Source: an uncultured Deinococcales bacterium | Lineage (GTDB): Bacteria; Deinococcota; Deinococci; Deinococcales; JAAFIG01 | Direction: 5' to 3' | Assembly (NCBI GenBank): GCA_964247135.1 | Contig: CAXTTL010000073.1 | Coordinates: 1 to 19,873, forward strand | Length of the DNA stretch: 19,873 bases | Part shown: piece by piece, positions 1 through 19,099 of the stretch | Position numbering within the stretch: the first letter of the stretch is position 1 | Layout: the number at the start of each line of letters is the position of its first letter | Program-made: the position numbers and the translations under genes | The notes under the pieces: model-generated | The model's input: the letters and a program-made list of their open reading frames with translations, nothing else | What the model was told of the DNA's origin: nothing | Databases searched by the model: none

Positions 1-219
1 GGAGCCCTTCTGCGGAGAGAGGCGATTTATTCTTCAACGCTCGCTTCCTTTCGAAAGCAATACGAGGAGGGAAAACTCCTCGCCAAAAACGCCCCCCTCC
101 GGGCAAAGCAGCGCAAGGACAGACAAGCCAAACGTCAGCACGACCAGCGGGCTTTCCAAGCCTTGCAACTCGAGGCACAAAACCTACTCGAGGCTCAGGG
201 TCAAGAAAAATTGGGTTAA
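1..219 (+). mobile_element. IS3-family transposase OrfA-like C-terminal fragment (5' end outside window; probably a remnant)
   Basis: Frame +1 is open from base 1: GALLRREAIYSSTLASFRKQYEEGKL...QEKLG*, TAA at 217-219. It matches the GALLRREGLYSSxLxxWRKQ motif of IS3-family OrfA HTH proteins. No OrfB/DDE ORF is recognisable downstream. Confidence 0.6.
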
Positions 220-2566: not shown

Positions 2567-2588
2567 ACCCTTAGGAAAGATGACATTC

Positions 2589-3107
2589 ATGGCAAATCAC
2601 GTCAGCCTTGAGCAGTCCAAGCTTGCCGATTTACAGATGAGCAACGGTGGAACGACGGTATTTCTGAGTGTTTTATTGCTGGCAGGAAGTGATCTTGCCA
2701 GCAGCGACTGGGAAAAAACCTTGATGGTTTGGCTCGCCGAAAAAGACCAAGCCGTGACCGGTTCGGGCGTTGTCGGCTTTGATCTTTCACAGATCAAATG
2801 GGATGCGGTTTCGTTTCTCGAGCAACAATCTTTTTTGTTAAAAGTGATCGATCTGGCACTCGAGCGTCACCGTTGGAGCGTTTTGGGTTACGAGCCTGGA
2901 CCAGACCAAGGTCAACCGTGGGTGCTGGATGATTTGCGGCATTTCAAAGTTCTTGTGACAGCTTTCAAACTAGAATACATCGAGGCTCGAGATTGGGATT
3001 TTAACGTTCAAGAAACCGATTTTCAAAAATGCCCCAAACATCAAATCTATCTGCATTCTTTAAACTCCGATCCGCTCGAGTGTTGCCTGATCTGCAATGA
3101 TTGTTAA
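2589..3107 (+). CDS. hypothetical protein with C-terminal CxxH...CxxC putative Zn site
   Basis: Closely follows the upstream gene. AGGA at 2573-2576 fits ATG 2589 (alternative 2580). Ends CPKHQIYLH...CCLICNDC. Confidence 0.75.
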   Translation: MANHVSLEQSKLADLQMSNGGTTVFLSVLLLAGSDLASSDWEKTLMVWLAEKDQAVTGSGVVGFDLSQIKWDAVSFLEQQSFLLKVIDLALERHRWSVLGYEPGPDQGQPWVLDDLRHFKVLVTAFKLEYIEARDWDFNVQETDFQKCPKHQIYLHSLNSDPLECCLICNDC

Positions 3108-3151
3108 GTTCTCACTTGCTCGAGTTGAGGGTTTTCTTTAGACTTGAAGCG

Positions 3152-3886
3152 GTGACCAAACTTCATCTTCAAAGTCTGCGGTTTAACGATTCAAGATGGC
3201 GTGACGACCTTCACCCGTTTCGAGTGCCTGCGGTGCAACACGTTAAAAAACATGGTTTAAAGTTTCAGACGCCAATCACTTTTTTCGTTGGCGAGAACGG
3301 TTCGGGCAAAACCACGATTCTCGAGGCGTTGGCGGCGCGTTATCCAAGGATTGGTTCGGTTTCGCCATTCAGCAACCGCACCGGAACGTTGCTGTCATTC
3401 GAGGATGTCCCGCTGGCTTGGAATGCTGATTTGGGTCTCTCGAGTCAAGCCAGCACCGAAGGTTTTTTCTTGCGTGCCTCAACGCTTGGCTCTTTGATCG
3501 GTGACCTTGACCGCGAAGCCAAACCCGCACCCAGGGCGGGTGAACGCCCATTGGCACGGCGTTCGCACGGCGAGGGTTTGCTGGGTTTACTGAATTCGCA
3601 TTTTGAATCCAAAGGCATGTACTTTCTGGACGAACCCGAAACCGCGCTGTCGTTTAACGCCACGCTCGGACTGGTGGGTTTGCTGGCGACGCTGGCTAAG
3701 AACGGCTCGCAGGTGATTGCCGCGACGCACTCCCCCATTGTGCTGTCCGTTCCTGGGGCAACGATTCTCGAGTTTGGCGATTTTGGTATTCGGGAGGTTG
3801 CCAGGGCTGATCTTGACCTGTTGCGCGACTGGCAGAGTTTCCTCGAGCGCCCCGAGGTCTGGTTGCGACACGTGCTCGAGGAATAA
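3152..3886 (+). CDS. AAA/ABC-type ATPase (COG3910-like predicted ATPase)
   Basis: PITFFVGENGSGKTT (Walker A), GFFLRA, SHGE signature, YFLDEPE (Walker B), ATHSP (H-loop). GTG 3152 lies 7 nt after a TAGACT -10-like box. Confidence 0.88.
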   Translation: MTKLHLQSLRFNDSRWRDDLHPFRVPAVQHVKKHGLKFQTPITFFVGENGSGKTTILEALAARYPRIGSVSPFSNRTGTLLSFEDVPLAWNADLGLSSQASTEGFFLRASTLGSLIGDLDREAKPAPRAGERPLARRSHGEGLLGLLNSHFESKGMYFLDEPETALSFNATLGLVGLLATLAKNGSQVIAATHSPIVLSVPGATILEFGDFGIREVARADLDLLRDWQSFLERPEVWLRHVLEE

Positions 3887-3969
3887 AAACGTAGCGTCAG
3901 ACTTTGGGCAAAACAAACGGCGGACTGATAACATAATCGTTCAATGAACAAGCGAACAGGAATTGATTG

Positions 3970-5019
3970 ATGCGTTTTGGTTTTACGGTTTTGCTGTTGC
4001 TGGCGCTTCAAAGCAATGTTTTTGCCCAAAAGACCTTGATTGTCGCCATCAAACCCTTGACACCGTTTGTCATGCCAGCAGGCTCGGGTTTTGAAGGTTA
4101 CAGCATTGACTTGTGGAACGCGATTGCCACCAAAAACGGCTGGACAACCCAGTACAAGTATCTTAAAACCGTCAAAGAGGTCTTGAATGCCGTGGCAAAC
4201 AAACAAGCCGACGTTGGCATTGCGGGCATCAGCATCACCAAAGAGCGCGAACAAATGGTTGATTTCAGTTTGCCGATGTTTAACTCTGGGCTTCAGGTGC
4301 TGGTTCCAGTGCGTTCAAGTTTCAACCCCATGACGGCGTTTCGCAACCTTTTCTCGCCACAATTGGCTTTTGTTGCCCTGATGATTGTCTCGAGCATCGT
4401 GATTGCAGGGCATCTGATGTGGCTGGTCATGCGTCACCGCCCCGATTACCCCAAAGGTTACCTTAAAGGGGTCACTGAGGGCATCTGGTGGGCTGCCATG
4501 AGCTTTCCGCAAAACGACCTGGGCGAGAAAAACCCCAGGTCGGTCATCGGGCGTCTTGCAGGCATGTTTTGGATGGTGGTCAGCGTGGTGCTGCTGGCAA
4601 ATTTTACCGCCAGCGTGACCGCCAATTTGACGGTACAACAAATCCAAAGCGGGATTCGCGGCATCAGCGATCTGCCAGGGAAACGGGTCTTGACCGTTGC
4701 GGGCACAACTTCCGAGGCTTACCTGGCGCAAAATGCGGTGCGATTTCAAACCGCGCCAACCATCGAACAAGCCATTTCTCAACTCGAGCGAGGCGAGGCA
4801 GAAGCCGTCGTTTATGACGCGCCAGTCTTGCAATACCAAGCCAGCCATGAGGGCAACGGCACGTTGACGGTGGTCGGCGATGTCTTCAAACCCGAATATT
4901 ACGGCATTGCGATTCCGCTCGGCAGTCCAAACCGCAAAGCCATCAATGAAACCCTAACCGAAATGATTGGCGCTGGCGAACTGACCCAAATTCAACAGCA
5001 TTGGTTTGGCACGAAGTAA
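3970..5019 (+). CDS. GluR0-like prokaryotic ligand-gated ion channel (family-3 SBP domain split by an M1-P-M2 channel domain)
   Basis: Signal peptide; S1 (PFVM...GYSIDLW...ADVGIAGISITKEREQMVDFSLPMF); TM1; pore helix GIWWAAMSF...PRSVIGR; TM2 LLANFTASVTANL; S2 (DLPGKRV..GTTS...VVYDAPVLQY...EYYGIA). RBS AGGA at 3958-3961. Confidence 0.88.
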   Translation: MRFGFTVLLLLALQSNVFAQKTLIVAIKPLTPFVMPAGSGFEGYSIDLWNAIATKNGWTTQYKYLKTVKEVLNAVANKQADVGIAGISITKEREQMVDFSLPMFNSGLQVLVPVRSSFNPMTAFRNLFSPQLAFVALMIVSSIVIAGHLMWLVMRHRPDYPKGYLKGVTEGIWWAAMSFPQNDLGEKNPRSVIGRLAGMFWMVVSVVLLANFTASVTANLTVQQIQSGIRGISDLPGKRVLTVAGTTSEAYLAQNAVRFQTAPTIEQAISQLERGEAEAVVYDAPVLQYQASHEGNGTLTVVGDVFKPEYYGIAIPLGSPNRKAINETLTEMIGAGELTQIQQHWFGTK

Positions 5020-5171
5020 AGCCCATTTGGCAGTCGTGGCTCGAGCGCTGGCAATAACATTTGCAAACCAGCCGCACACCCTCGAGCCGCGTTGGGGCGC
5101 TAGCGCAACTTCATCTCGAGAACTTCGGGGCGTATGCCATTTGGCGTATCTCGTGATTGCCAATTTTTGCT

Positions 5172-5204
5172 GTCACAGCCTGGTCACAGCAATCTTCGTA
5201 CCCT
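5172..5204 (+). promoter_or_regulatory. tandem direct repeat with 11-bp period (OmpR/PhoB-type box) plus -10-like TACCCT
   Basis: GTCACAGC at 5172-5179 and 5183-5190; TACCCT at 5199-5204; RBS AAGGAG at 5233-5238. Confidence 0.5.
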
Positions 5205-5246
5205 GATCTCGTTGCGAGCAGATTGCAACCTCAAGGAGACAAAATC

Positions 5247-6020
5247 ATGTTTAAACCTGGCATTATTTCAGTATTGTTCGCCGTGGCTTTGACCGCTTGT
5301 CCTGTTGGCGAAAGTTCCCCCGCAGGCAAAAACAGCATTTCGGGACGGGCGCTCGACGCTCGAGGAAAGCCAGTCGTTGGGGCGTTGGTCTGGGTCAAAC
5401 CTGCCATTACCACCGGTTTGGTCACGGCGCACACGGACGCGAACGGTCAGTATCGGGTGACGGGTTTGATTGATATTCCGTACAAGGTTTACGCCTGGGC
5501 GCAACCCGAGTTTGGCGGCAAACGCCAGTGTTTGCGACTCGGGCATGACCAGATCGCCGATTACGACGCGGTTGTCCCCTCGCAGGGGGTGATGCGTGAT
5601 TTTCGTTGGAAACTCGAGGGTCTGATTGCAGACCGTGGCGCTGAGACGTATTTTGGTGGCGAGCTGCGTTTGATGCCAGTGTACCGCCACGACGGCGATT
5701 TTGACATTCACGGCAACTTAAAAATTGAACTCAAACTTGTACCCACGGGCGAACTGGTCGATGGCAGCGCTGGCAAGACAATCGTCCGCACCCTGAACTG
5801 GAACGACACCAGTTTGGCAACCGATATTCCGCTGGGTTCGTACCAAGTCAGCGCCACACAAATTGCCCAGGATGGAACCCGCTCTCAGCTTGAGGTTGGT
5901 CCAAACGAAACGGGCTTGACCAGCCAATCGGGCTTAAGTTTCAAAGCCGTTTCGGGCGCTTGCGGCGGCAACTTTGGCAACGGCACCGAACGCGCTTTTG
6001 TCTCCATTGCCCGCCCTTAA
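5247..6020 (+). CDS. lipoprotein with carboxypeptidase-regulatory-like (transthyretin-fold) domain
   Basis: RBS AAGGAG then ATG 5247; lipobox LTAC; ISGRALDARGKPVVGALV...HTDANGQYRVTGL is typical of CarboxypepD_reg domains. Confidence 0.8.
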   Translation: MFKPGIISVLFAVALTACPVGESSPAGKNSISGRALDARGKPVVGALVWVKPAITTGLVTAHTDANGQYRVTGLIDIPYKVYAWAQPEFGGKRQCLRLGHDQIADYDAVVPSQGVMRDFRWKLEGLIADRGAETYFGGELRLMPVYRHDGDFDIHGNLKIELKLVPTGELVDGSAGKTIVRTLNWNDTSLATDIPLGSYQVSATQIAQDGTRSQLEVGPNETGLTSQSGLSFKAVSGACGGNFGNGTERAFVSIARP

Positions 6021-9898: not shown

Positions 9899-12304
9899 TT
9901 AAGGTGTGAATCGAAGCCAATTGATTTTGGCTGCACCCGTTACCGTGACATAAACATCCTGCAATCCTGTGGGTTTGGTCGGCAGAAAACAGGTGTTCGA
10001 TTTGGTTTCCCAAGTGCCGCCACCTGCGGGGTAGACAGTGCAAAATACCGTGGCGGTTTGGCTGCCAATGCGAATTTGCAGGTTCGTGCCAAAACCTGGC
10101 GTGTTGGTGCGAAATTCGACCGAACTTGCACCCGTCGTTCCAAAGTTCACAGCGTTCAAAACAATGTAGCTGCTCGAGCTTGCCAAATTCGCCACGCTGC
10201 CGCCGTCGCCTGCTTCAATGGTCGCACCTGATTGCGCGTTAAAACTTTCTGCCTCGAGCACACTGTAGGCATCGCGGTTGCTGGTGTTCACGCTCGAGGT
10301 GGTGGCGCTGGTTTCGTTGCTGTAACCCGAATCGCCCGTGGCGTTGGTGGCGCGAACGCGGTAGGTGTATGTGGTGCTGGCGGTCAAGGCAGAATTATTG
10401 TAGGCGGTGACGCCTGCACCCACCGTGGCAATTTGGGCATACGCGCCCGTACCCGTTTTGCGCTCGAGCTTAAACCCGATTTCGTTGCTACTGTTGTCCA
10501 CCCAAGTCAAATTGATTTGGCTCGAGGATGCCGCACTGCCGGTCAAACTCGAGGGCGCGGCGGGAATGGTATTTGTTACTGTACCTGGAGCGTAAATTTT
10601 AAAATTGCCCGTGATGTGCAACATGCCCATAAACGCCAGCAAGTCGTTGTAATAACGGTACGCGCCAGTCTCGAGGTTTGAGTTCCAGAAGGCTTCAACA
10701 AATTTCCAAGCCACGGCATTGTTGCTCGAGAGTGTGCTTGCGGCGTTCATGGCAACCAATCCCACGGAGTGGTCGGTGTTGAATGGCGTGCTGTCCGTCC
10801 ACTTAAAATTGTTGCCGTAAGTGTTGACCCCTTGCGCATCAAAAAAATTCAGAATGCGGTTGGACAGCGTGACTGCATTGTTGCCGCTCGAGGGATTCTT
10901 TGCCCACCAGGCGTTGTCTACCGCCCAGTTCATGGCGGTGCGCCAAGCATCGAACCTGAAGTCTTGATGGTCGCCGCAACAGTGTGGTGCGCCGTTAAAA
11001 TCGGCATAATCTGGGGCTAAACCGTTGGCGTTGGTGGTCTGCGAAAAGTACAGTCGGCTGCGAGTAGCGGCATCTTTCCAGAATTGGCGGTCTTGGGTTT
11101 GTTGTCCATTGTATCCCGTTGCCCACAATCCCCAGAGTTCGTAAAAGGCTGGCAAATGATACGACGGGTCGGAATAACTGGCGCTGAGGTTGTCTGGACT
11201 GAACACTGCCATCTTGTTGGTTGGGTCAAACAAATTGTGATAGCTGTTGACCACGCCGCCGTTCTGGTCTTCTTTGTGCAACATGGCGTTCAAAATAGTG
11301 TTGGCTTGAGCCGTGTAATTGTAAATACCCGTGCCATTGCCCCAACGGTTGCCCGCAAAAAACAAAGCGGTCGTATAATATTCTTCGCCGTCTGGGGCAG
11401 GGTTGGGATCAATTACGCTGTGGTCTGGTCGCACGCGCCAAGCAAAATGTCCAGCGCGGTATCCGGTGGTGTTGAGCATGTAACTTTGCGACCAATTCCA
11501 GATTGCGTCAAACACGGCTTTTTGGTTCATCTGCACGGCGATCATCATGCCGTAAGACATGCCCTCGCTGCGCACGTCCATGTCTGTACCCGCGCTTTGC
11601 CCTTCGTTGTAAATATAACCCAGTGCGCCATTGGCATTGCTACCATCGGGGTAATACACGCGTTTGGTGTTGTCGGTGCTGACAAACAATTGATCCCAAT
11701 AGGCACTAAGTTTTGCTGTGATCTGCGCATCGGTGATGCTCGAGTTCCATTCTTTGACCATGTTGCGGTAGACACCGCTGGCATACGCGCCCGTGCTCGA
11801 GGGTGTGGGTGGTGGCGGTGGTGGCGGTGTTGTCCCCTCGTAAGCGATTTCGTACCAGTCGATGAACGTGTCGTTGCTGCCGTTGTCCGTCTCGAGCTTC
11901 AGCCGAATTTCTTTGCTGCCAGAGGTGGCAAGGTCAAAACTTTGGCTGGCACTGGCGAATGCCGTGCCTATAAAATTCAGGGCTGCCACTTTTGCCCCAG
12001 CCACGTAAACGCTGATGCCTGCGGCGGAAGCGTTGCTCGAAGCGCCGCGAACCGTGACTGTAAAGCGTCCCGTTTGCGCGAAAGTGTACGAATTAAAAGT
12101 TGCATCGTTGTTGCAGTAATACGAGACGGTGGTTGCGCCAATGCCCGTGCAACCGCCACCGTTGGTCATGGTTTCGGCTTCTTGATGCGTTAATAAAGTT
12201 GCTCGAGTTTGAACGGTGATGCTCGAGTTTTGGGTTTGCTGTCCGCAACCGACCAATACGAGTGTGCCGATTGCCATGCCGAGAATCCAGGTTCGTAGCT
12301 TCAT
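9899..12304 (-). CDS. multidomain GH8 glycoside hydrolase lipoprotein (CBM36-like / Pro linker / GH8 / FN3 / CBM6-like), probable xylanase
   Basis: Lipobox LVGC; CBM36-like EAETM...VRGASSN...TDNGSNDTFIDWYEI; PPPPPPPTP linker; GH8 motifs DVRSEGMSYGM, PAPDGEEY, DPSYHLPAFY, FRFDAWR and YRYY; FN3 (PAAPSSL...LTWVDNS...YTYRVRATN); CBM6-like RDAYSVLEAESF...VNFG. RBS AGGAGG. Confidence 0.93.
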   Translation of the reverse strand: MKLRTWILGMAIGTLVLVGCGQQTQNSSITVQTRATLLTHQEAETMTNGGGCTGIGATTVSYYCNNDATFNSYTFAQTGRFTVTVRGASSNASAAGISVYVAGAKVAALNFIGTAFASASQSFDLATSGSKEIRLKLETDNGSNDTFIDWYEIAYEGTTPPPPPPPTPSSTGAYASGVYRNMVKEWNSSITDAQITAKLSAYWDQLFVSTDNTKRVYYPDGSNANGALGYIYNEGQSAGTDMDVRSEGMSYGMMIAVQMNQKAVFDAIWNWSQSYMLNTTGYRAGHFAWRVRPDHSVIDPNPAPDGEEYYTTALFFAGNRWGNGTGIYNYTAQANTILNAMLHKEDQNGGVVNSYHNLFDPTNKMAVFSPDNLSASYSDPSYHLPAFYELWGLWATGYNGQQTQDRQFWKDAATRSRLYFSQTTNANGLAPDYADFNGAPHCCGDHQDFRFDAWRTAMNWAVDNAWWAKNPSSGNNAVTLSNRILNFFDAQGVNTYGNNFKWTDSTPFNTDHSVGLVAMNAASTLSSNNAVAWKFVEAFWNSNLETGAYRYYNDLLAFMGMLHITGNFKIYAPGTVTNTIPAAPSSLTGSAASSSQINLTWVDNSSNEIGFKLERKTGTGAYAQIATVGAGVTAYNNSALTASTTYTYRVRATNATGDSGYSNETSATTSSVNTSNRDAYSVLEAESFNAQSGATIEAGDGGSVANLASSSSYIVLNAVNFGTTGASSVEFRTNTPGFGTNLQIRIGSQTATVFCTVYPAGGGTWETKSNTCFLPTKPTGLQDVYVTVTGAAKINWLRFTP

Positions 12305-12527
12305 AAAACCTCCTGATGTTTTGTGGCTCGAGATTGAAATGCTCTTTGAGTAACGGATTTAATTTGATTGAATACTCGAGTTTTGACAATGGTTGACCAC
12401 AACCTCAAAACTTGAAGCTCGAGATTCTTGTTGGTTGTTCGTGCGTTAAATGATTTGAAATAAGAATAATTTTGCTCTTGGAATATATGAAAACCTTGCA
12501 ATACCCATGCCTCGAGTTTTAAAGAAC

Positions 12528-13850
12528 CTAAATGTTCTTGGGGGCGTAAATCTTGTACGCTCCCGCATTGTTCAGCAAGCCAAAAAAGTACAGCAAACCA
12601 GAGTAATAACGGTATTTGCCCGTTGGAATTTGGGCTTCCCACAACGCTTGGCTAAACTTGTAAGCTCGAGCATTGGTGGCGGCAAGGCTGGCGGTGGCGA
12701 GCATTCCAATGTGCCCAGCGTCGTGATAATTGTCTTGTGCGACGCCAGTCAGGGTGTAGACGTTGTGAAAGCTGTTGATGCCCTCTTTGTCCATGAAGGT
12801 TTGAATACGATCTGCCCAGGTTTTCTCGAGGTCTTGGGCTGCAAACCAGGCGTAATCCACAGCCCAGTTCATGGCGACCCGCCAGGCATCGTAGGCATAA
12901 TTGTTGTTGCCGTCGTTGGGGTTAAGTTGTTTGGGTGTGCCATCAAAATTGCTGTAATTTGGGCTTAAACCAGTGCTTGGGTGAACCGCTTTGCCAAACA
13001 ATTCGTTGCGGCTGGTGCTGGCGATGCTTGCCCAACGCGCACGGTCTGATTGTTGGTCGGTATAACCAGCCGCAAACCTCGAGAACAAATCGTAAAACGC
13101 GGCGACATGATAGCTCGGGTCGGTAAAACCATTCAGGTTGGCGTTGGTGCTGGGCACAAAAACGACTTGGTTGGCAGTTCCAAACATGTTGCTGATACCG
13201 CCGACAATGCCGCCGTTCATGTCTTCTTTATGCAGCATCACATTTAAAATGTTATTGGCTTGGGCTTGATAATCGAAAATGCCAGCGCCATTGCCCCAAC
13301 GACCTGCCGCAAAAAACAATGACATTGCAAAGTATTCCTCGCCGTCGGGGGCGGCATTGTTGTCTAGTTTTGTGCCCTCAGGGCTGCAATGCCAAGCAAA
13401 ATAACCTTGGCTCGAGCCACTGGCGTGCTGCATGTTGGTTTTTGCCCAGTTCCAGATGGCGTTAAACTGAGTTTGCTTGTCCATCTGCACCGAGATCATC
13501 ATGCCGTAAGACATGCCTTCGGTACGCACGTCGTTGTCGGCTGGGTTTAAAATATAGGCGAGAGCGCCGTTGCTGTTGCTGCCTGCTGGGTAATACAGGC
13601 GCTGGTTGTCGTCGGTGCTCTCAAAAAATTGATTCCAGGTATCAACAAGTCTGGTTTGGATTTGGGCTTGGCTCAAACTCGAGTTCGACTCTTGAAACAA
13701 ATTGCGGTACACGCCCGTGCTGAATGCGCCTTGGCTTGGTGGTATCGGCTCGAGCACGCTGGGCTTGGAATTGACGGCACAGGCGCTCAAACTCGAGATC
13801 ATGATTGCCCCGATCAGTTGGAAAAAGTGGTTTGAAGCTTTGAATTTCAT
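12528..13850 (-). CDS. single-domain GH8 glycoside hydrolase lipoprotein (xylanase / oligoxylanase clade)
   Basis: Lipobox LSAC; DVRTEGMSYGM, AAPDGEEY, DPSYHVAAFY, YAYDAWR and KYRYY; RBS GGGAG. Confidence 0.93.
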   Translation of the reverse strand: MKFKASNHFFQLIGAIMISSLSACAVNSKPSVLEPIPPSQGAFSTGVYRNLFQESNSSLSQAQIQTRLVDTWNQFFESTDDNQRLYYPAGSNSNGALAYILNPADNDVRTEGMSYGMMISVQMDKQTQFNAIWNWAKTNMQHASGSSQGYFAWHCSPEGTKLDNNAAPDGEEYFAMSLFFAAGRWGNGAGIFDYQAQANNILNVMLHKEDMNGGIVGGISNMFGTANQVVFVPSTNANLNGFTDPSYHVAAFYDLFSRFAAGYTDQQSDRARWASIASTSRNELFGKAVHPSTGLSPNYSNFDGTPKQLNPNDGNNNYAYDAWRVAMNWAVDYAWFAAQDLEKTWADRIQTFMDKEGINSFHNVYTLTGVAQDNYHDAGHIGMLATASLAATNARAYKFSQALWEAQIPTGKYRYYSGLLYFFGLLNNAGAYKIYAPKNI

Positions 13851-14136: not shown

Positions 14137-14207
14137 GATTCGTTAAACTCTCCCCAGCCAAAAAAACAACATCCTGCTTCGCAATGCTTTGTGCTCTAAA
14201 CTGACGT

Positions 14208-15227
14208 ATGTCTGAAAGGTCTTTCGTGTCCAATCCTGTCACCCTTACCCAAGTTGCTCGAGCCGCTGAGGTTTCACCCAGCACCGTCTCGAGAATTTTG
14301 AACGGTACGGCAGTTGTCAACGAAGCCAAACGACGGCGCGTTCAAGAGGTGATTGCACGTCTTGGCTACAGCCCAAATGTCATGGCGCAAAGCCTCAAAA
14401 CTGGGCAGAGCATGAGTATTGGCGTATTAACCCAAGAACTCGATAGTTTGTTTTACGGCAAAACCCTCAAAGGCATCGAGATCGGTTTGTCCGAAAGCAG
14501 CTACCACCCGCTTTTTGTTGGTGGTCACTGGCAAGAACGCGACGAACTCGCGTCACTCGAGGCTTTAAGTCGCCGTCGGGTCGATGCCCTGATTGTGCTC
14601 GGTGGTCTGACCAGCGATGCGCAACTCTTAACACTTTCAAAGAACCTGCCTGTGGTGGCGGTCAGCCGAGTGATTCCAGGACTCGAGGCGCAGTGCATCA
14701 GCATCGACAACAAACACGGCGCGTTCGAGGCGACCAAGCACCTGCTCGAGTTGGGGCATCGGCGCATTGCGCATCTGACTGGTCCTTTAAGCCGTCAAGA
14801 TGCCCGAGAGCGACTTGAAGGTTACAAGTTGGCGTTGGCTCAGGCTGGGGTTTCTTTTGATGAAAGCTTGTTGTGCGAGGGCGATTACAACGAACAATCT
14901 GGGGTACTGGCAATGGATGCCCTCTTGGCTCGAGGTTCGCGGTTTACAGCGGTTTTTGCCGCCAATGACGGCATGGCACACGGCGCAAGACTGACCTTGT
15001 TCAGACGTGGGATTCGCGTTCCAGAAGACATTTCACTGATTGGTTTTGATGACCTTCCAACCGCACGTTTTTCGATTCCGCCGCTCACCACCGTGCGTCA
15101 ACCAATGTTCGAGATGGGACAGGCGGCGGCACAACTGATTTTGATGTTGCTCGAGGGTCGTGAGCCAAAATTGCCAAAGCTTTCCACCGAATTGATCGTC
15201 CGCGAGTCCACAACTTTACCCCGCTAA
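14208..15227 (+). CDS. LacI family transcriptional regulator
   Basis: TLTQVARAAEVSPSTVSRILNG HTH, LGYSPNVMAQSL hinge, LGHRRIA, RVPEDISLIGFDD, PPLTTVRQP, LIVRES. TAAACT lies 5 nt before the ATG (leaderless-like). Confidence 0.95.
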   Translation: MSERSFVSNPVTLTQVARAAEVSPSTVSRILNGTAVVNEAKRRRVQEVIARLGYSPNVMAQSLKTGQSMSIGVLTQELDSLFYGKTLKGIEIGLSESSYHPLFVGGHWQERDELASLEALSRRRVDALIVLGGLTSDAQLLTLSKNLPVVAVSRVIPGLEAQCISIDNKHGAFEATKHLLELGHRRIAHLTGPLSRQDARERLEGYKLALAQAGVSFDESLLCEGDYNEQSGVLAMDALLARGSRFTAVFAANDGMAHGARLTLFRRGIRVPEDISLIGFDDLPTARFSIPPLTTVRQPMFEMGQAAAQLILMLLEGREPKLPKLSTELIVRESTTLPR

Positions 15228-15266
15228 ACAAGCTGTTTTTTGAAGTGATCAATATTTTTTTGCAAT

Positions 15267-15290
15267 AGTTTTGAAAACGTTTTCAAAACT
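15267..15290. promoter_or_regulatory. LacI-type operator upstream of the beta-barrel/lipoprotein operon
   Basis: Perfect 24-bp palindrome AGTTTTGAAAACGTTTTCAAAACT. Confidence 0.85.
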
Positions 15291-15394
15291 GTGTTGGACA
15301 AGGAGAACACTACAAGAATTTGACTCAAAACCATTGACCCTCGAGAAAGCCAAATCATCAAGCGTCAAAAGAACCAATTCAAACAAGGAGCACC

Positions 15395-16171
15395 ATGAAA
15401 TTAAAAATCAGCCTACTCGTAAGTATCATCGTCCTGATCGGCTTGTCCACGTCAGGTTATGCCCAACGCATCGACGGTTTTGCCCAAGTTGGCATCTCGA
15501 AGGGTTACAGCATTTTTGGAGCCTTACAAATCGCCTTTGATCTGGTCAAAGACGTGACTTATGGCACACGCATCGAACTGGCATTTGTCGATGGAAACAA
15601 CAACTCAAACGACAACCCGAAACTCGAGCTTCAACCCTACATCTCTTACGACACACCCATTGCCAGCGATGCCAGCTATTACGTCTCTGGCGGCGTGACC
15701 TTGCGCACTTATGCTCGGGTGTTCTCGAAGATCAGCAACAATACCGTGGGCGTGGATTACGACCTGTCATTGCGTTTACAACCGTCCATCAACGCCAACA
15801 TTGCCATTGCTCCAGGCTGGCGGGCTTATGGCGGCACGGGCGCAGGCTTGCAATTTGGTTTGCTGCCCAACCCAGGCATTCTGTACTCGTTCATTTACGT
15901 TTACGGCTTTGCCAAAGGTGACCTCTCGAGCTTGCTGCCCAATTTGGAGGCGGTCATTGGTGGCGGCGCGAGCAGCAGCTTTGACAGCAATTTCAAACTC
16001 AACGACCCCGCCATTGGCGCGTCTGTTTACGGGGCACTCGAGTATCAACTCGGAGGCGGTTTGGCACTGCGCTTTGAAACTGGTTATTCGACGGGCAACA
16101 GCAGCGTCAGTTATGACACCGTGGAATCAAACGGTTTTTACGTGTTCTTGCGCGGATCATTCCGCATTTAA
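15395..16171 (+). CDS. secreted hypothetical protein, predicted outer-membrane beta-barrel
   Basis: RBS AAGGAG; SPI signal peptide ending GYA-Q; many alternating amphipathic strands rich in G/Y/F (YGTRIELAF, LELQPYISY, WRAYGGTGAGLQF, ASVYGALEYQL, LALRFETGY); terminal strand FYVFLRGSFRI. Confidence 0.75.
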   Translation: MKLKISLLVSIIVLIGLSTSGYAQRIDGFAQVGISKGYSIFGALQIAFDLVKDVTYGTRIELAFVDGNNNSNDNPKLELQPYISYDTPIASDASYYVSGGVTLRTYARVFSKISNNTVGVDYDLSLRLQPSINANIAIAPGWRAYGGTGAGLQFGLLPNPGILYSFIYVYGFAKGDLSSLLPNLEAVIGGGASSSFDSNFKLNDPAIGASVYGALEYQLGGGLALRFETGYSTGNSSVSYDTVESNGFYVFLRGSFRI

Positions 16172-16181
16172 AGGAGTATTT

Positions 16182-17087
16182 ATGAAAAGAATTTCTGTTT
16201 TAGCCCTGGCATTCGCCACCATCCTTAGCGCCTGCGGTCAAGATGTTGTGACCGTCGGTAAACTCACCGTTAACATTTCTGGATTGCCTGGTGGTTCTGC
16301 CCCAAGCGTTGCCGTGACTGGACCCTCGAGCTTCACCAAAACCCTTACCGCAACCGTCACCCTCGAGAATCTGACTCCTGGCACGTACACGATCACGCCA
16401 GCCAAAGTCGCGGTTGCCGCCGACAATTACACGGCTGCCACCGCCACCGCCTCCGTCACGGCTGGGAACACCGCCAGCAGCAATGTGGTCTACTCGAAGG
16501 CTGCCCCAGTTGAGGTCACGCTGGCTTTTGCCGACTTTACGGGCGGCGCAGCAGACTCGAGCACCCAGGGTGGGAAATTCACAAATTACAGTTATCACGG
16601 CAGTGGTGTTGCCACAATTGCCACAGGTCAACCAGTGAAAGGCACAGATAAGTTATCGGCTGATTACACCCTCGGAGCAGGTGATTTTGGTGGCGTTGCG
16701 CTGGGCGTAGATGCCAACGCGACGGCTCAACCAATCGATTTGACTGGCTATACCAAACTCCGAATCAAAATGGCACGCTCTGGTGGCGGCTCTCTCAGCA
16801 TTAAAGTCGTCGGTAATGAAAAAGCTGTTCAAGACAGCGGTTGTTATCCTGTCTATCAAGCCACACCTGGCGATGACGGCGGATTTGCAGTCACAAACAC
16901 ATTGGCTGAATACACACTCGATTTGAGTCAATTCAATTACCGCAGCTATTGCAGTGCTCCAAATCGCAAGACTCTTGCCGAAACCATTAATAACGTCATC
17001 CGCGTCGAAGTCGAGGATCGTTTCTTGCCAAGCACTGGCAGCGAAAACCGCACGATAACCTTGGGCAGCATCACGTTCGTGAAGTAA
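16182..17087 (+). CDS. lipoprotein: Ig-like spacer plus CBM11/CIA30-like carbohydrate-binding domain
   Basis: RBS AAGGAG then ATG 16182; lipobox LSAC; GKLTVNISGLP...VTGP...LENLTPGTYTIT (Ig-like); jelly-roll motif FGGVALG...IDLTGYTKLRIKM...GCYPVY...YTLDLSQF...TLGSITFVK. Confidence 0.82.
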   Translation: MKRISVLALAFATILSACGQDVVTVGKLTVNISGLPGGSAPSVAVTGPSSFTKTLTATVTLENLTPGTYTITPAKVAVAADNYTAATATASVTAGNTASSNVVYSKAAPVEVTLAFADFTGGAADSSTQGGKFTNYSYHGSGVATIATGQPVKGTDKLSADYTLGAGDFGGVALGVDANATAQPIDLTGYTKLRIKMARSGGGSLSIKVVGNEKAVQDSGCYPVYQATPGDDGGFAVTNTLAEYTLDLSQFNYRSYCSAPNRKTLAETINNVIRVEVEDRFLPSTGSENRTITLGSITFVK

Positions 17088-17100
17088 CCAAAAACGTTTG

Positions 17101-17126
17101 GTTGTGGAATCTCGAGATTCCACAAC
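17101..17126. repeat. perfect 26-bp intergenic palindrome centred on CTCGAG
   Basis: GTTGTGGAAT-CTCGAG-ATTCCACAAC. Confidence 0.9.
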
Positions 17127-17150
17127 TGACAAACCTTGAAGGAGGTTTTT

Positions 17151-17873
17151 ATGAAATATGCCGTTCTCATCGCAATCGGCGCTGTGAGCCTCGCCTCGTG
17201 CGCTCCAATGAATGCCAAACCTGCAACGCCTGCTGCCGCACCAACTTCGGTGGCAACAGCACCAGCAACTCCAGTCGCCCCAGCCGCAACGACCACTCCT
17301 GCGGCAACTCCTGTCGCATCAGACGCCAACGTTTTAACTTGGGCAACTTTCGAGAATAGCGACGCCAACGCAACCGCTCAGGCGGGTAAAATCGAAACCA
17401 ATGCTTACAGCGAAAAACCGAACGATGCCAGCAAAGAAAATCCAGTTCGAGAGAACAGCAATGCCGTTTTGAATTACATGCTGACCAAAGCGGGCGGCAG
17501 CAGTTTCTTGGGCGCAGGCATGACGATCAACGCACCAAAAAATGGCACGTTTGACCTCTCGGGCTTTAAAAGTATGCGCATCAAACTTTCCTCGAGCGCC
17601 AGCACCGTGGTGCGTTTGCGGATTTCTGGGGCGGACACGGCAACCCAAAACAACGGCTGCTATCCGGTGCGTTACACCAAAGTCACGGACAAACTCGAGT
17701 CGTACACGGTTGCGATTTCGGAATTTGCGCCAGAATCGTATTGCAGCGCGAACGCCCGCAGCTTGGCGCAAACCCTGCCTGGTGGCGCGGTGGTTGAGAT
17801 TGCCGACAACGAAGTGCCGAGCAGCCCACGCAAGGGCAAAATCAGCATCTCGAGCATCGAATTTTTGAAGTAA
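17151..17873 (+). CDS. lipoprotein: Pro/Ala/Thr linker plus CBM11/CIA30-like domain (paralogous to the upstream lipoprotein domain)
   Basis: RBS AAGGAGG then ATG 17151; lipobox LASC; PATPAAAPTS... linker; FLGAGM...FDLSGFKSMRIKL...GCYPVRY...YTVAISEF...SISSIEFLK. Confidence 0.82.
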   Translation: MKYAVLIAIGAVSLASCAPMNAKPATPAAAPTSVATAPATPVAPAATTTPAATPVASDANVLTWATFENSDANATAQAGKIETNAYSEKPNDASKENPVRENSNAVLNYMLTKAGGSSFLGAGMTINAPKNGTFDLSGFKSMRIKLSSSASTVVRLRISGADTATQNNGCYPVRYTKVTDKLESYTVAISEFAPESYCSANARSLAQTLPGGAVVEIADNEVPSSPRKGKISISSIEFLK

Positions 17874-17892
17874 TTTGGATTTTTTAAGGACA

Positions 17893-17920
17893 GAGAATTG
17901 AAACTCGAGTTTCAATTCTC
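17893..17920. repeat. perfect 28-bp intergenic palindrome centred on CTCGAG (possible terminator)
   Basis: GAGAATTGAAA-CTCGAG-TTTCAATTCTC, 20 nt after the lipoprotein stop codon. Confidence 0.9.
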
Positions 17921-17937
17921 CATATGTTCCAAAACTC

Positions 17938-17953
17938 TTGACAGCGCTTTCAA
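17938..17953. promoter_or_regulatory. LacI-type operator overlapping a -35 TTGACA upstream of the second LacI gene
   Basis: TTGACAGCGCTTTCAA; GATACT -10-like box at 17961-17966 (17-nt spacer). Confidence 0.75.
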
Positions 17954-18082
17954 AACCTGCGATACTTCGCTCATCGTTTGATTCAAAACACGTTGCCGCC
18001 TTAAACCAAATTGGTTTCAGCACGGCTTGCGCCCTCGAGAAATCGCGTCTTTCACGGCTTAAAGCCGTCTTACGGAGTTTGT

Positions 18083-19099
18083 GTGCCTGAAGTCAAAACC
18101 CTCAGTGATGTTGCCACCATCGCCCAAGTTTCACCGAGTACCGTCTCGAGAATCTTGAACGGTACGGCGGTGGTTGCCAAGGACAAACGCGAACGGGTTT
18201 TGAAAGTGATTCAAGAACTCAATTACCGTCCAAACGTGATCGCCCAAGGTCTGGCACGCGGGCAATCGATGACCATCGGTGTGGTCACGCAAGCCATCTC
18301 GAGTCCGTTTTACGGCGAGGCGCTGGCGGGGGTCGAGGAGGGTTTGGAGGGCAGCGGTTATCATGCGCTGTTTGCCAGCGGACACTGGCGGGTCAACGAA
18401 GAGCGCGAAGCCCTCGCCTTGCTGACCAGTCGTAGGGTAGACGCGATTATTTTGACCGGCTCGAGCATTCCAGACCTTGAATTGCAGCAACTTGCCAAAA
18501 CCTTGCCGGTGGTCATTGTCGGGCGAACCGTTCCAGGCTTGGAGAACAACTGCATCAGCGTTGACAACCGTGTCAGTGGCGCTTTGGGCATCCAGCATTT
18601 GATCTCCTTGGGGCATCGCCAAATTGCTTACATCTCTGGTACGGCGACAGTACAGGGCGATGCCACCGAAAGGCTCGAGGCGTACCGTTCGACGCTGAAA
18701 AAAGCGGAGATCAAATACGACCCCAATTTGGTGATTGAAGGCGATTATCAAGAGCGATCTGGTTTGTTTGGAATTGAAACGCTGTTTGCCAGGGGCGCGA
18801 TTTTTACCGCCGTCGCCTGTGCCAACGATCAGTCCGCCTACGGGGTGCGCCTGGCATTGTACCGCCGAGGAATTCGTGTTCCAGACGATGTTTCCTTGAT
18901 CGGTTTCGATGATCTGCAAGCCTCGGCGTACACCACTCCCCCACTCACCACGGTACGTCAACCGATTGTCGAAATGGGTAAACTCGCCTCGAGAATGGCG
19001 CTTTCAATTTTGCGCGGCGCACCGTTCAAACCAAGTCCAATTCCTGGCGAACTGGTGATTCGTGAATCAACCGCCGTCCTGCGCGGCGCTCGAGCTTAA
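18083..19099 (+). CDS. LacI family transcriptional regulator (paralog of 14208-15227)
   Basis: GGAG RBS at 18074-18077 then GTG 18083; TLSDVATIAQVSPSTVSRILNG, NYRPNVIAQGL, LGHRQIA, RVPDDVSLIGFDD, PPLTTVRQP, LVIRES. Confidence 0.95.
   Translation: MPEVKTLSDVATIAQVSPSTVSRILNGTAVVAKDKRERVLKVIQELNYRPNVIAQGLARGQSMTIGVVTQAISSPFYGEALAGVEEGLEGSGYHALFASGHWRVNEEREALALLTSRRVDAIILTGSSIPDLELQQLAKTLPVVIVGRTVPGLENNCISVDNRVSGALGIQHLISLGHRQIAYISGTATVQGDATERLEAYRSTLKKAEIKYDPNLVIEGDYQERSGLFGIETLFARGAIFTAVACANDQSAYGVRLALYRRGIRVPDDVSLIGFDDLQASAYTTPPLTTVRQPIVEMGKLASRMALSILRGAPFKPSPIPGELVIRESTAVLRGARA

Follow-up and report, generated by a model that had tools for sequence, protein, structure and literature searches.

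In the window analysed here, a 19,873-nt stretch of contig CAXTTL010000073.1 from an uncultured Deinococcales bacterium, we identified a gene for a GluR0-type prokaryotic homologue of the ionotropic glutamate receptors (iGluRs) at 3967–5019 on the forward strand. The pore loop of the encoded protein carries QNDLGE in place of the K+ signature TVGYGD. The gene probably encodes a functional amino-acid-gated channel of the GluR0 type that is likely non-K+-selective and belongs to the class of prokaryotic iGluRs named Group 2, with a glutamine-tipped loop derived from a bacterial K+-type (K-type) pore independently of the eukaryotic receptors. That class is already known: Ger, Rendon, Tilson & Jakobsson (2010, PLoS One 5:e12827, PMC2950845) sort 22 prokaryotic iGluRs into Group 1, whose 12 members have a K+ filter, and the filter-less Group 2, which has 10. 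To this known class the gene adds a new member, from a small clade at the level of a genus whose conserved Gln-tipped loop resembles that of animal receptors.

Architecture and ligand site of the channel gene

The open reading frame (ORF) yields 350 aa from the TTG at 3967 or 349 aa from the ATG at 3970. The ATG is probably the start codon, because AGGA lies 8 nt upstream of it and 349-aa homologues start with MRFG. In a Pfam scan the protein matched SBP_bac_3 (E 4.8e-23, residues 25–348), Lig_chan PF00060 (E 1.9e-14, residues 138–238, 54.2 bits against a cut-off of 30.8) and Lig_chan-Glu_bd (E 1.1e-10), all above their cut-offs and with the Lig_chan match lying inside that of SBP_bac_3. The K+-channel family Ion_trans_2 scored 17 bits, under its cut-off of 22.5, and an NCBIfam scan gave no model above cut-off (the best was GlnH, with 136.9 bits against 303). 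The top match in the PDB was the ligand-binding core of Nostoc punctiforme GluR0 (2pyy, E 9.3e-47), followed by glutamine-binding proteins and then by GluN2A–D, which aligned with residues 72–347 in a single stretch (E ~1e-24). Relatives are annotated as 'ABC-transporter substrate-binding protein', an assignment that we ruled out since the binding domain is split by the Lig_chan module.

An AlphaFold2 (AF2) model built on an alignment of 96 relatives (mean predicted local distance difference test score, pLDDT, 89.4; pTM 0.76) runs from an N-terminal helix through S1, M1, a pore helix, a loop and a long M2 to S2, so that the channel module is inserted in the clamshell. In Foldseek the model matched the chains spanning ligand-binding domain (LBD) and transmembrane domain (TMD) of GluD2, GluA1, GluA2 and GluA4 (E ~1e-24, TMq ~0.7). 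The N-terminal hydrophobic helix, like an R/K/H-rich linker between M1 and the pore region, was read from the sequence and the model; the helix ends ...VFA/QK, covers residues 2–15 in the model and is probably a Sec signal peptide (3970–4029). The S1 half of the clamshell (4030–4326, residues 22–120, with G87, S89, T91 and R94) was placed by alignment to the 2pyy LBD and to glutamine-binding protein (GlnBP), as was the S2 half (4651–5016, residues 229–350, with T247, T248 and D284). Between them lie the M1 transmembrane helix (4357–4431, residues 131–155, pLDDT 85–93), the pore helix (4459–4503, residues 165–179, ending GIWWAAMSF), which aligns with the M2 pore helix of GluA2, the pore loop or filter region (4504–4542, residues 180–192, FPQNDLGEKNPRS; Q182 at 4510–4512), modelled as non-helical with a pLDDT of ~59, and M2, the equivalent of M3 in the animal receptors (4543–4647, model helix 193–227), which includes the gate motif NFTASVTA (N212–A219) and LTVQQ and was also aligned with GluA2 and GluN2D.

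The Pfam scan of the window protein found no amino-terminal domain (ATD; PF01094 unmatched), and there is no M4: the 350-aa protein stops where S2 ends and the model has no helix past S2. As judged from sequence and model, the gene thus has the minimal GluR0 architecture, with M1, a re-entrant pore loop and M2 between the halves of a class-3 solute-binding domain. A complex prediction with four copies of the TMD (residues 118–232) scored 0.28 against a mark of 0.42; this is no answer and counts neither for nor against a tetramer.

The putative ligand site resembles that of amino-acid-binding proteins. In the printed alignment of the PDB search, G87, S89 and R94 lie opposite G68, T70 and R75 of E. 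coli GlnBP and D284 lies opposite D157; R94 and D284 are also aligned with 2pyy, and T91, R94, T248 and D284 are invariant across the 96 relatives. The GlnBP residues facing R94 and D284 are the arginine that binds the alpha-carboxylate and the aspartate that binds the alpha-amino group of the ligand. In Ger et al. (2010, PMC2950845) amino acid binding by prokaryotic iGluRs is recognised by an S1 Arg for the alpha-carboxylate and an S2 Asp or Glu for the alpha-amino group, and the window protein has R94 and D284 as the candidate pair. The fold matches the L-glutamate-bound clamshell of 2pyy (Foldseek TMt 0.79), with ~43% of LBD positions identical (92/216 aligned, counted from the printed alignment); 2pyy is a soluble core only, so this likeness covers the LBD and not the pore. 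One relative (P0029, 51% identical, with an ASNSIGER loop) was considered as the Nostoc protein behind 2pyy and ruled out, as its similarity to 2pyy is only about that of the window protein.

The pore loop beside animal and K-type pores

The codons of QNDLGE (caa aac gac ctg ggc gag) occupy exactly 4510–4527, where a preliminary description of this DNA had put them, within residues W174–R196 (WWAAMSFPQNDLGEKNPRSVIGR). That description also proposed a bacterial iGluR-type channel gene with its K+ signature replaced, in agreement with the Pfam and PDB matches and with the position of QNDLGE in the TVGYGD columns of relatives. When the isolated TMD (122 aa) was searched against the PDB, GluA2 chains were matched at E 2.4e-9; because of this match and the Lig_chan score of 54.2 bits, we attribute the resemblance to iGluR pores to homology and not to chance.

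In the HMMER alignment with GluA2, Q182 lies opposite the first Gln of MQQG, E187 opposite the Asp at +4 from the Q/R site, and PRS opposite PRS, with a single one-residue gap. With GluN2D (window residues 160–300) the pore aligns without gaps, Q182–N183 facing both Asn of FNNS and KNPRS facing ENPRG. In the alignment of relatives, Q182 also falls opposite the Gln of a lamprey GluD1-like protein. We take the column of Q182 to be the Q/R/N site of the animal receptors, so that Q182 stands at the tip of the loop where eukaryotic iGluRs have their Q/R/N-site residue. The '+4 aspartate' described in PMC12226733 is consistent with this placement. The gap-free alignment claimed in the preliminary description therefore holds for GluN2D, with Q182 at an Asn, whereas GluA2 needs the one gap; similarly, the NMDA-like GExxPRS spacing is found with GluN2D (KNPRS/ENPRG), although the claim had named GluN1, for which we have only a match of residues 160–300 to 5uow_A at E 7.6e-7. 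The segment ANFTASVTANL (A211–L221), which had been likened to SYTANLAAF, is indeed part of a homologous gate helix, but NFTASVTA lies opposite SYTANLAA of GluA2 (3/8 identical, and also aligned in GluN2D), so that the 'TANL' echo is out of register. In summary, the window protein resembles AMPA and NMDA receptor pores (GluA2, GluN2D) in the Gln at the Q/R/N column, in E187 at the +4 Asp of GluA2, in the N-P-R spacing of GluN2D, in the gate helix and in the LBD–TMD fold. In contrast, the animal receptors possess an ATD, M4 and a C-terminal tail, overall identity is ~20% and the gate agrees in those 3/8 positions.

Compared with its K-type relatives, QNDLGE aligns with TVGYGD column for column and without gaps, and the pore loops are equal in length. 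The TXVGYG signature that defines Group 1 is absent, since QNDLGE fills its columns; instead, the protein combines iGluR topology with a P region that lacks a recognisable selectivity signature, as in Group 2. The published account of Group 2 likewise gives an S1-(M1, P, M2)-S2 order, no K+ signature and a conserved S1 Arg and S2 Asp (PMC2950845). The ten proteins listed there come from Nostoc/Anabaena, alphaproteobacteria and Vibrio/Photobacterium, none of them Deinococcota, and the likeness to the window protein is one of description. With GluR0 of Synechocystis PCC 6803 (Slr1257) and the rest of Group 1 the window protein shares the minimal architecture, the loop length and a family-wide NFTA...LTV helix, and its TMD is 41–50% identical to the nearest TVGYGD representatives. 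K-type GluR0, a glutamate-gated K+ channel, differs in having TVGYGD where the window protein has QNDLGE.

The first Gly and the Tyr of TVGYG shape the carbonyl cage of K+ channels. In the window protein four of the five TVGYG positions are changed (T to Q, V to N, G to D, Y to L) and the tip consists of Gln with polar and acidic residues. Because the carbonyl cage is gone, a non-K+-selective cation current is most likely, as judged from the sequence. We consider it quite unlikely that the pore has kept a selectivity or preference for K+ despite its altered motif and works in K+ and volume homeostasis as Synechocystis GluR0 does. For such a role speak the TMD, which has its greatest similarity to K-type GluR0 modules, and the retention of G186 and E187 at the columns of the second Gly and of the Asp in GYGD. 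In addition, GluR0 was reported in 2026 to mediate K+ uptake and to act in volume regulation under K+ stress (PMC13099474), and motif and selectivity are separable, as AvGluR1 carries TXVGYG yet passes Na+ (PMC3483616). The changed positions and the sub-threshold Ion_trans_2 score argue against K+ selectivity.

Descent and conservation of the Gln-tipped loop

A search for family proteins returned 1188 at E <= 1e-5, of which the best 120 were aligned. Gln occupies the Q182 column in 28 of these 120 (57–91% identical, read from the alignment), and the residue two positions further on is D in 19 of the 28 and S in 9. The Asp on which the preliminary description had built an argument for Ca2+ permeability (D184 in the window protein) is therefore variable within the clade, which leaves Ca2+ permeability of the window channel speculative. 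Other loops among the best 120 of the 1188 proteins read TGGFGD/ER, SNSIGER, PIASIGER, GGSDK, ANEPVGR and TANMADE. The closest genomic relatives are metagenome-assembled genomes (MAGs) of Deinococcales with 84–90% identity, the next best reaching 47%. Within the order, 20 of 201 genomes have a match at E <= 1e-30. All five other genomes of the window's genus carry an orthologue (84–90% identity, in one case split across contig ends), four of them evidently being the assemblies L006–L009, while other genera of the order have TVGYGD or TGGFGD loops.

The descent of the loop was examined with two trees. A FastTree phylogeny used 103 representatives clustered at 72% identity with the pore columns kept, and a quick IQ-TREE phylogeny (LG+G4) used 66 rows (25 from the neighbourhood of the clade, 4 eukaryotes and every second of the other 74) with the pore columns taken out. 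The eukaryotes, three plant GLR3-like proteins and one lamprey GluD1-like protein, all came from one protein search, with no AMPA or NMDA receptor sequences among them. On both trees the Gln-tipped clade was recovered (support 100 in FastTree and 99 in IQ-TREE) as sister to an ASNSIGER sequence. It nests in a 25-row bacterial group that includes three TVGYGD members, and the plant and lamprey proteins lie across a branch of support 92–96 (both trees are unrooted). The K/non-K label changes at least 8 times on the FastTree phylogeny and at least 6 times on that from IQ-TREE, with 4 and 2 of these changes forced by starred branches. Since the sequences around the clade are bacterial, some of them with TVGYGD, and the plant and lamprey receptors lie far away, an independent change is suggested: the most probable source of the Gln-tipped loop is a bacterial K-type pore that changed separately from the eukaryotic iGluRs, a descent that these sequences favour without proving it.

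It is very unlikely, in our view, that the clade pore is instead a direct relative of the eukaryotic iGluR pore, as sister or ancestor-like form, with the Gln and the NMDA-like spacing inherited and with a direct bearing on the loss of K+ selectivity. The residue matches fit such kinship, with Q182 at the Q/R-site Gln of GluA2 and, gap-free, at the N/N+1 pair of GluN2D with an identical NPR. An approximately unbiased (AU) test also failed to reject a grouping of the clade and the four eukaryotes (p-AU 0.087), in a comparison where the group was named post hoc from the tree, the four eukaryotic sequences are long-branched and the trees are unrooted. Ger et al. (2010, PMC2950845) moreover argue that Group 2 is closer to eukaryotic iGluRs, being nearer to human iGluRs in BLAST than the K-type proteins. 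In contrast, both maximum-likelihood trees nest the clade in bacteria, the TMDs that come closest beyond the clade itself are of the K-type (among the best 150 of 1942 clusters; see below), loop length and the P-R/K motif are common to K-type bacteria and so not specifically eukaryotic, ATD and M4 are absent, same-order relatives carry TVGYGD or TGGFGD, and the label has changed at least 6–8 times. As the trees nest the clade beside K-type and half-degenerate bacterial filters and not beside eukaryotes, the bearing on how iGluRs lost K+ selectivity that the preliminary description had seen is one of analogy only, with the AU result as the qualification.

Loops without the K+ filter are common in the bacterial family. 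In a set of 257 relatives (259 pooled, minus two shorter than 260 aa after trimming, and biased towards the window protein), 163 lack [TS][VIL]G[YF]G and 94 carry it. A scan with the TMD alone against 1.84 billion representatives gave 1942 clusters at E <= 1e-3, 553 at <= 1e-10 and 2 at <= 1e-30, both of the latter belonging to the clade of the window protein. When the best 150 of the 1942 were taken together with the window protein, 105 were K-type and 46 non-K, and the nearest TMDs outside the clade were TVGYGD types (41–50% identical). Gln stands in the Q182 column in 8 of these 151 rows: 3 from the clade including the window protein, 4 from an unrelated MTQRGIGQ group and 1 other. TVGYGD members, too, have the P-R/K-S/G motif and the NFTA...LTVQ helix, which are therefore features of the family and not eukaryote-like novelties. 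Loss of the K+ filter is thus widespread (163/257; 46/151) and in print since 2010 (PMC2950845).

The survey of relatives gave three further observations. The group with the loop VAMTQRGIGQxGPRT (four proteins: P0232, P0252, P0279 and P0307), with its Gln at the Q182 column, appears to be another independent Gln-tipped loop. Forty cyanobacterial proteins of 676–734 aa (P0122–P0161) have an N-terminal ProX/OpuAC glycine-betaine-binding domain (PF04069) fused to a K-type GluR0 module, a bacterial analogue of the extra amino-terminal binding domain. MAGs of Mycobacterium and Mycobacteriaceae contain tandem arrays of 2–4 iGluR-homologue genes whose short non-K loops read AAPFD-PPRRW or AQPDE-MPKHW (loci L066, L056, L021, L057, L060, L062, L065, L067, L072, L077 and L081).

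Within the gene, constraint is strongest at the pore loop. In an alignment of 18 clade sequences W174, W175, Q182, L185, G186, P190, S192, G195, R196 and L209–A215 are invariant. Between the window and four orthologues, Nei–Gojobori omega was 0.12–0.20 for the whole gene, 0.02–0.11 for the TMD and 0–0.05 for the pore region (residues 170–198), where 0–2 non-synonymous stand against 7–14 synonymous differences; the reading frame is intact in all orthologues. This constraint contradicts a dead channel, which the preliminary description had proposed to recognise by close homologues that keep TVGYG and by relaxed selection: the motif is conserved under purifying selection. A non-conducting protein, either a membrane-anchored amino-acid sensor or binding protein or a decaying channel, is most improbable: the database name 'polar amino acid transport system substrate-binding protein' of the relatives and the lack of an NCBIfam model at cut-off would fit it, but a pore omega of 0–0.05 against 0.12–0.20 overall is difficult to reconcile with a simple membrane anchor, and the frame is intact and the gate-helix motif invariant in the clade.

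A second iGluR homologue is present in the same genome (386 contigs, 84% complete) on contig 81 at 14147–15187 (L002:1300–2553). It is 61% identical to the window copy, with the pore FPQSSLGSENPKS and an N-terminal extension of ~60 aa, and among the six genomes of the genus searched only that of the window has it as a match at E <= 1e-30. A heteromer of the two copies is conceivable. Two other genomes of the order contain homologues with one in-frame stop each (G105:C1:16303–17307 and G109:C83:492–1406; TGA and TAG), which may be pseudogenes or sequencing errors.

Mechanism, genomic surroundings and meaning

A functional, amino-acid-gated and probably non-K+-selective channel would work as follows. 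The exported two-lobed clamshell of S1 and S2 would bind an amino acid in a complex that is expected to be tetrameric, given its homology to iGluRs and GluR0. When the clamshell closes on its ligand, tension on the M2 helices would open the gate at their bundle crossing (NFTASVTA), and ions would then pass a loop without the TVGYG carbonyl filter, whose tip is the conserved Gln followed by acidic or polar residues. Several points weigh against this reading. Conduction, selectivity, ligand and stoichiometry of the window channel are all inferred, and our literature search found no functional data on the window protein or on any non-K prokaryotic iGluR. The filter loop is the part modelled at low confidence (AF2 pLDDT ~59), and D184 (D/S) and E187 (E/D/S) vary within the 18-sequence clade alignment. 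As AvGluR1 illustrates, the motif does not tell selectivity (PMC3483616). Finally, with the clade and the four eukaryotes joined in a single group, the AU test gave a delta log-likelihood of 26.4 and, at the p-AU given above, no rejection.

The neighbours of the gene in the window are an NMO-like gene, an AAA_21 ATPase, a CarboxypepD_reg lipoprotein, a hydrolase, a TetR regulator, an ADH, two GH8 genes and two LacI regulators, and no functional link to the channel was found among them. In four relatives the upstream NMO-like and AAA_21 genes are syntenic and the downstream genes are not. Directly upstream of the channel gene, at 3101–3886 (+), lies the 261-aa AAA_21/AAA_15 ATPase ('AbiEii-like' Pfam family, 86–92% identity in relatives), which may be of defence or OLD type. 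A 175-aa ORF at 2580–3107 (+), between the NMO-like and AAA_21 genes, overlaps the AAA_21 start and has no Pfam match; it is missing from the four syntenic relatives, where the gap between the two genes is ~110 nt, and it looks like an insertion specific to the window's genome. Farther downstream, 9899–13850 (−) and 14208–19099 (+) hold the two GH8 glycoside hydrolases (one with fn3 and CBM6), the two LacI-family regulators and an SBP_bac_1 gene, in what looks like a polysaccharide-utilisation cluster. A promoter scan of 3700–5300 found no sigma-70-like site, and a terminator scan of the same interval gave one weak minus-strand site inside the gene, fewer than in shuffled sequences, which is uninformative. 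A search of sequencing runs returned five DNA metagenome runs (word shares 0.05–0.20) with no RNA run among them.

A more far-reaching proposal, to which we give a slim but real chance, is that a small Deinococcales clade convergently rebuilt an animal-like loop, with a Gln at the tip, a downstream acidic residue and NMDA-type spacing, on the two-helix GluR0 scaffold. If the channel were non-selective, Ca2+-permeable and perhaps blockable by polyamines, bacteria would offer a natural model of the Q/R/N filter. In that case, the neighbouring loops TGGFGER and ASNSIGER would be living intermediates of a transition from K+ to cation channels, and the 61%-identical paralogue (pore FPQSSLGSE) could form heteromers with the window copy.

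Existing knowledge of the origin of iGluRs is unchanged by this gene; its value lies in the filter-less class. Functional tests on GluR0 were reportedly made by Chen et al. in 1999. In our literature search such tests concerned only K+-type prokaryotic iGluRs (GluR0), the larger non-K set being catalogued without recordings. With a conserved loop, a residue-for-residue alignment to the animal Q/R/N region and graded intermediates nearby on the tree, the clade offers a compact 349-aa candidate for a first functional test of filter-less prokaryotic iGluRs.

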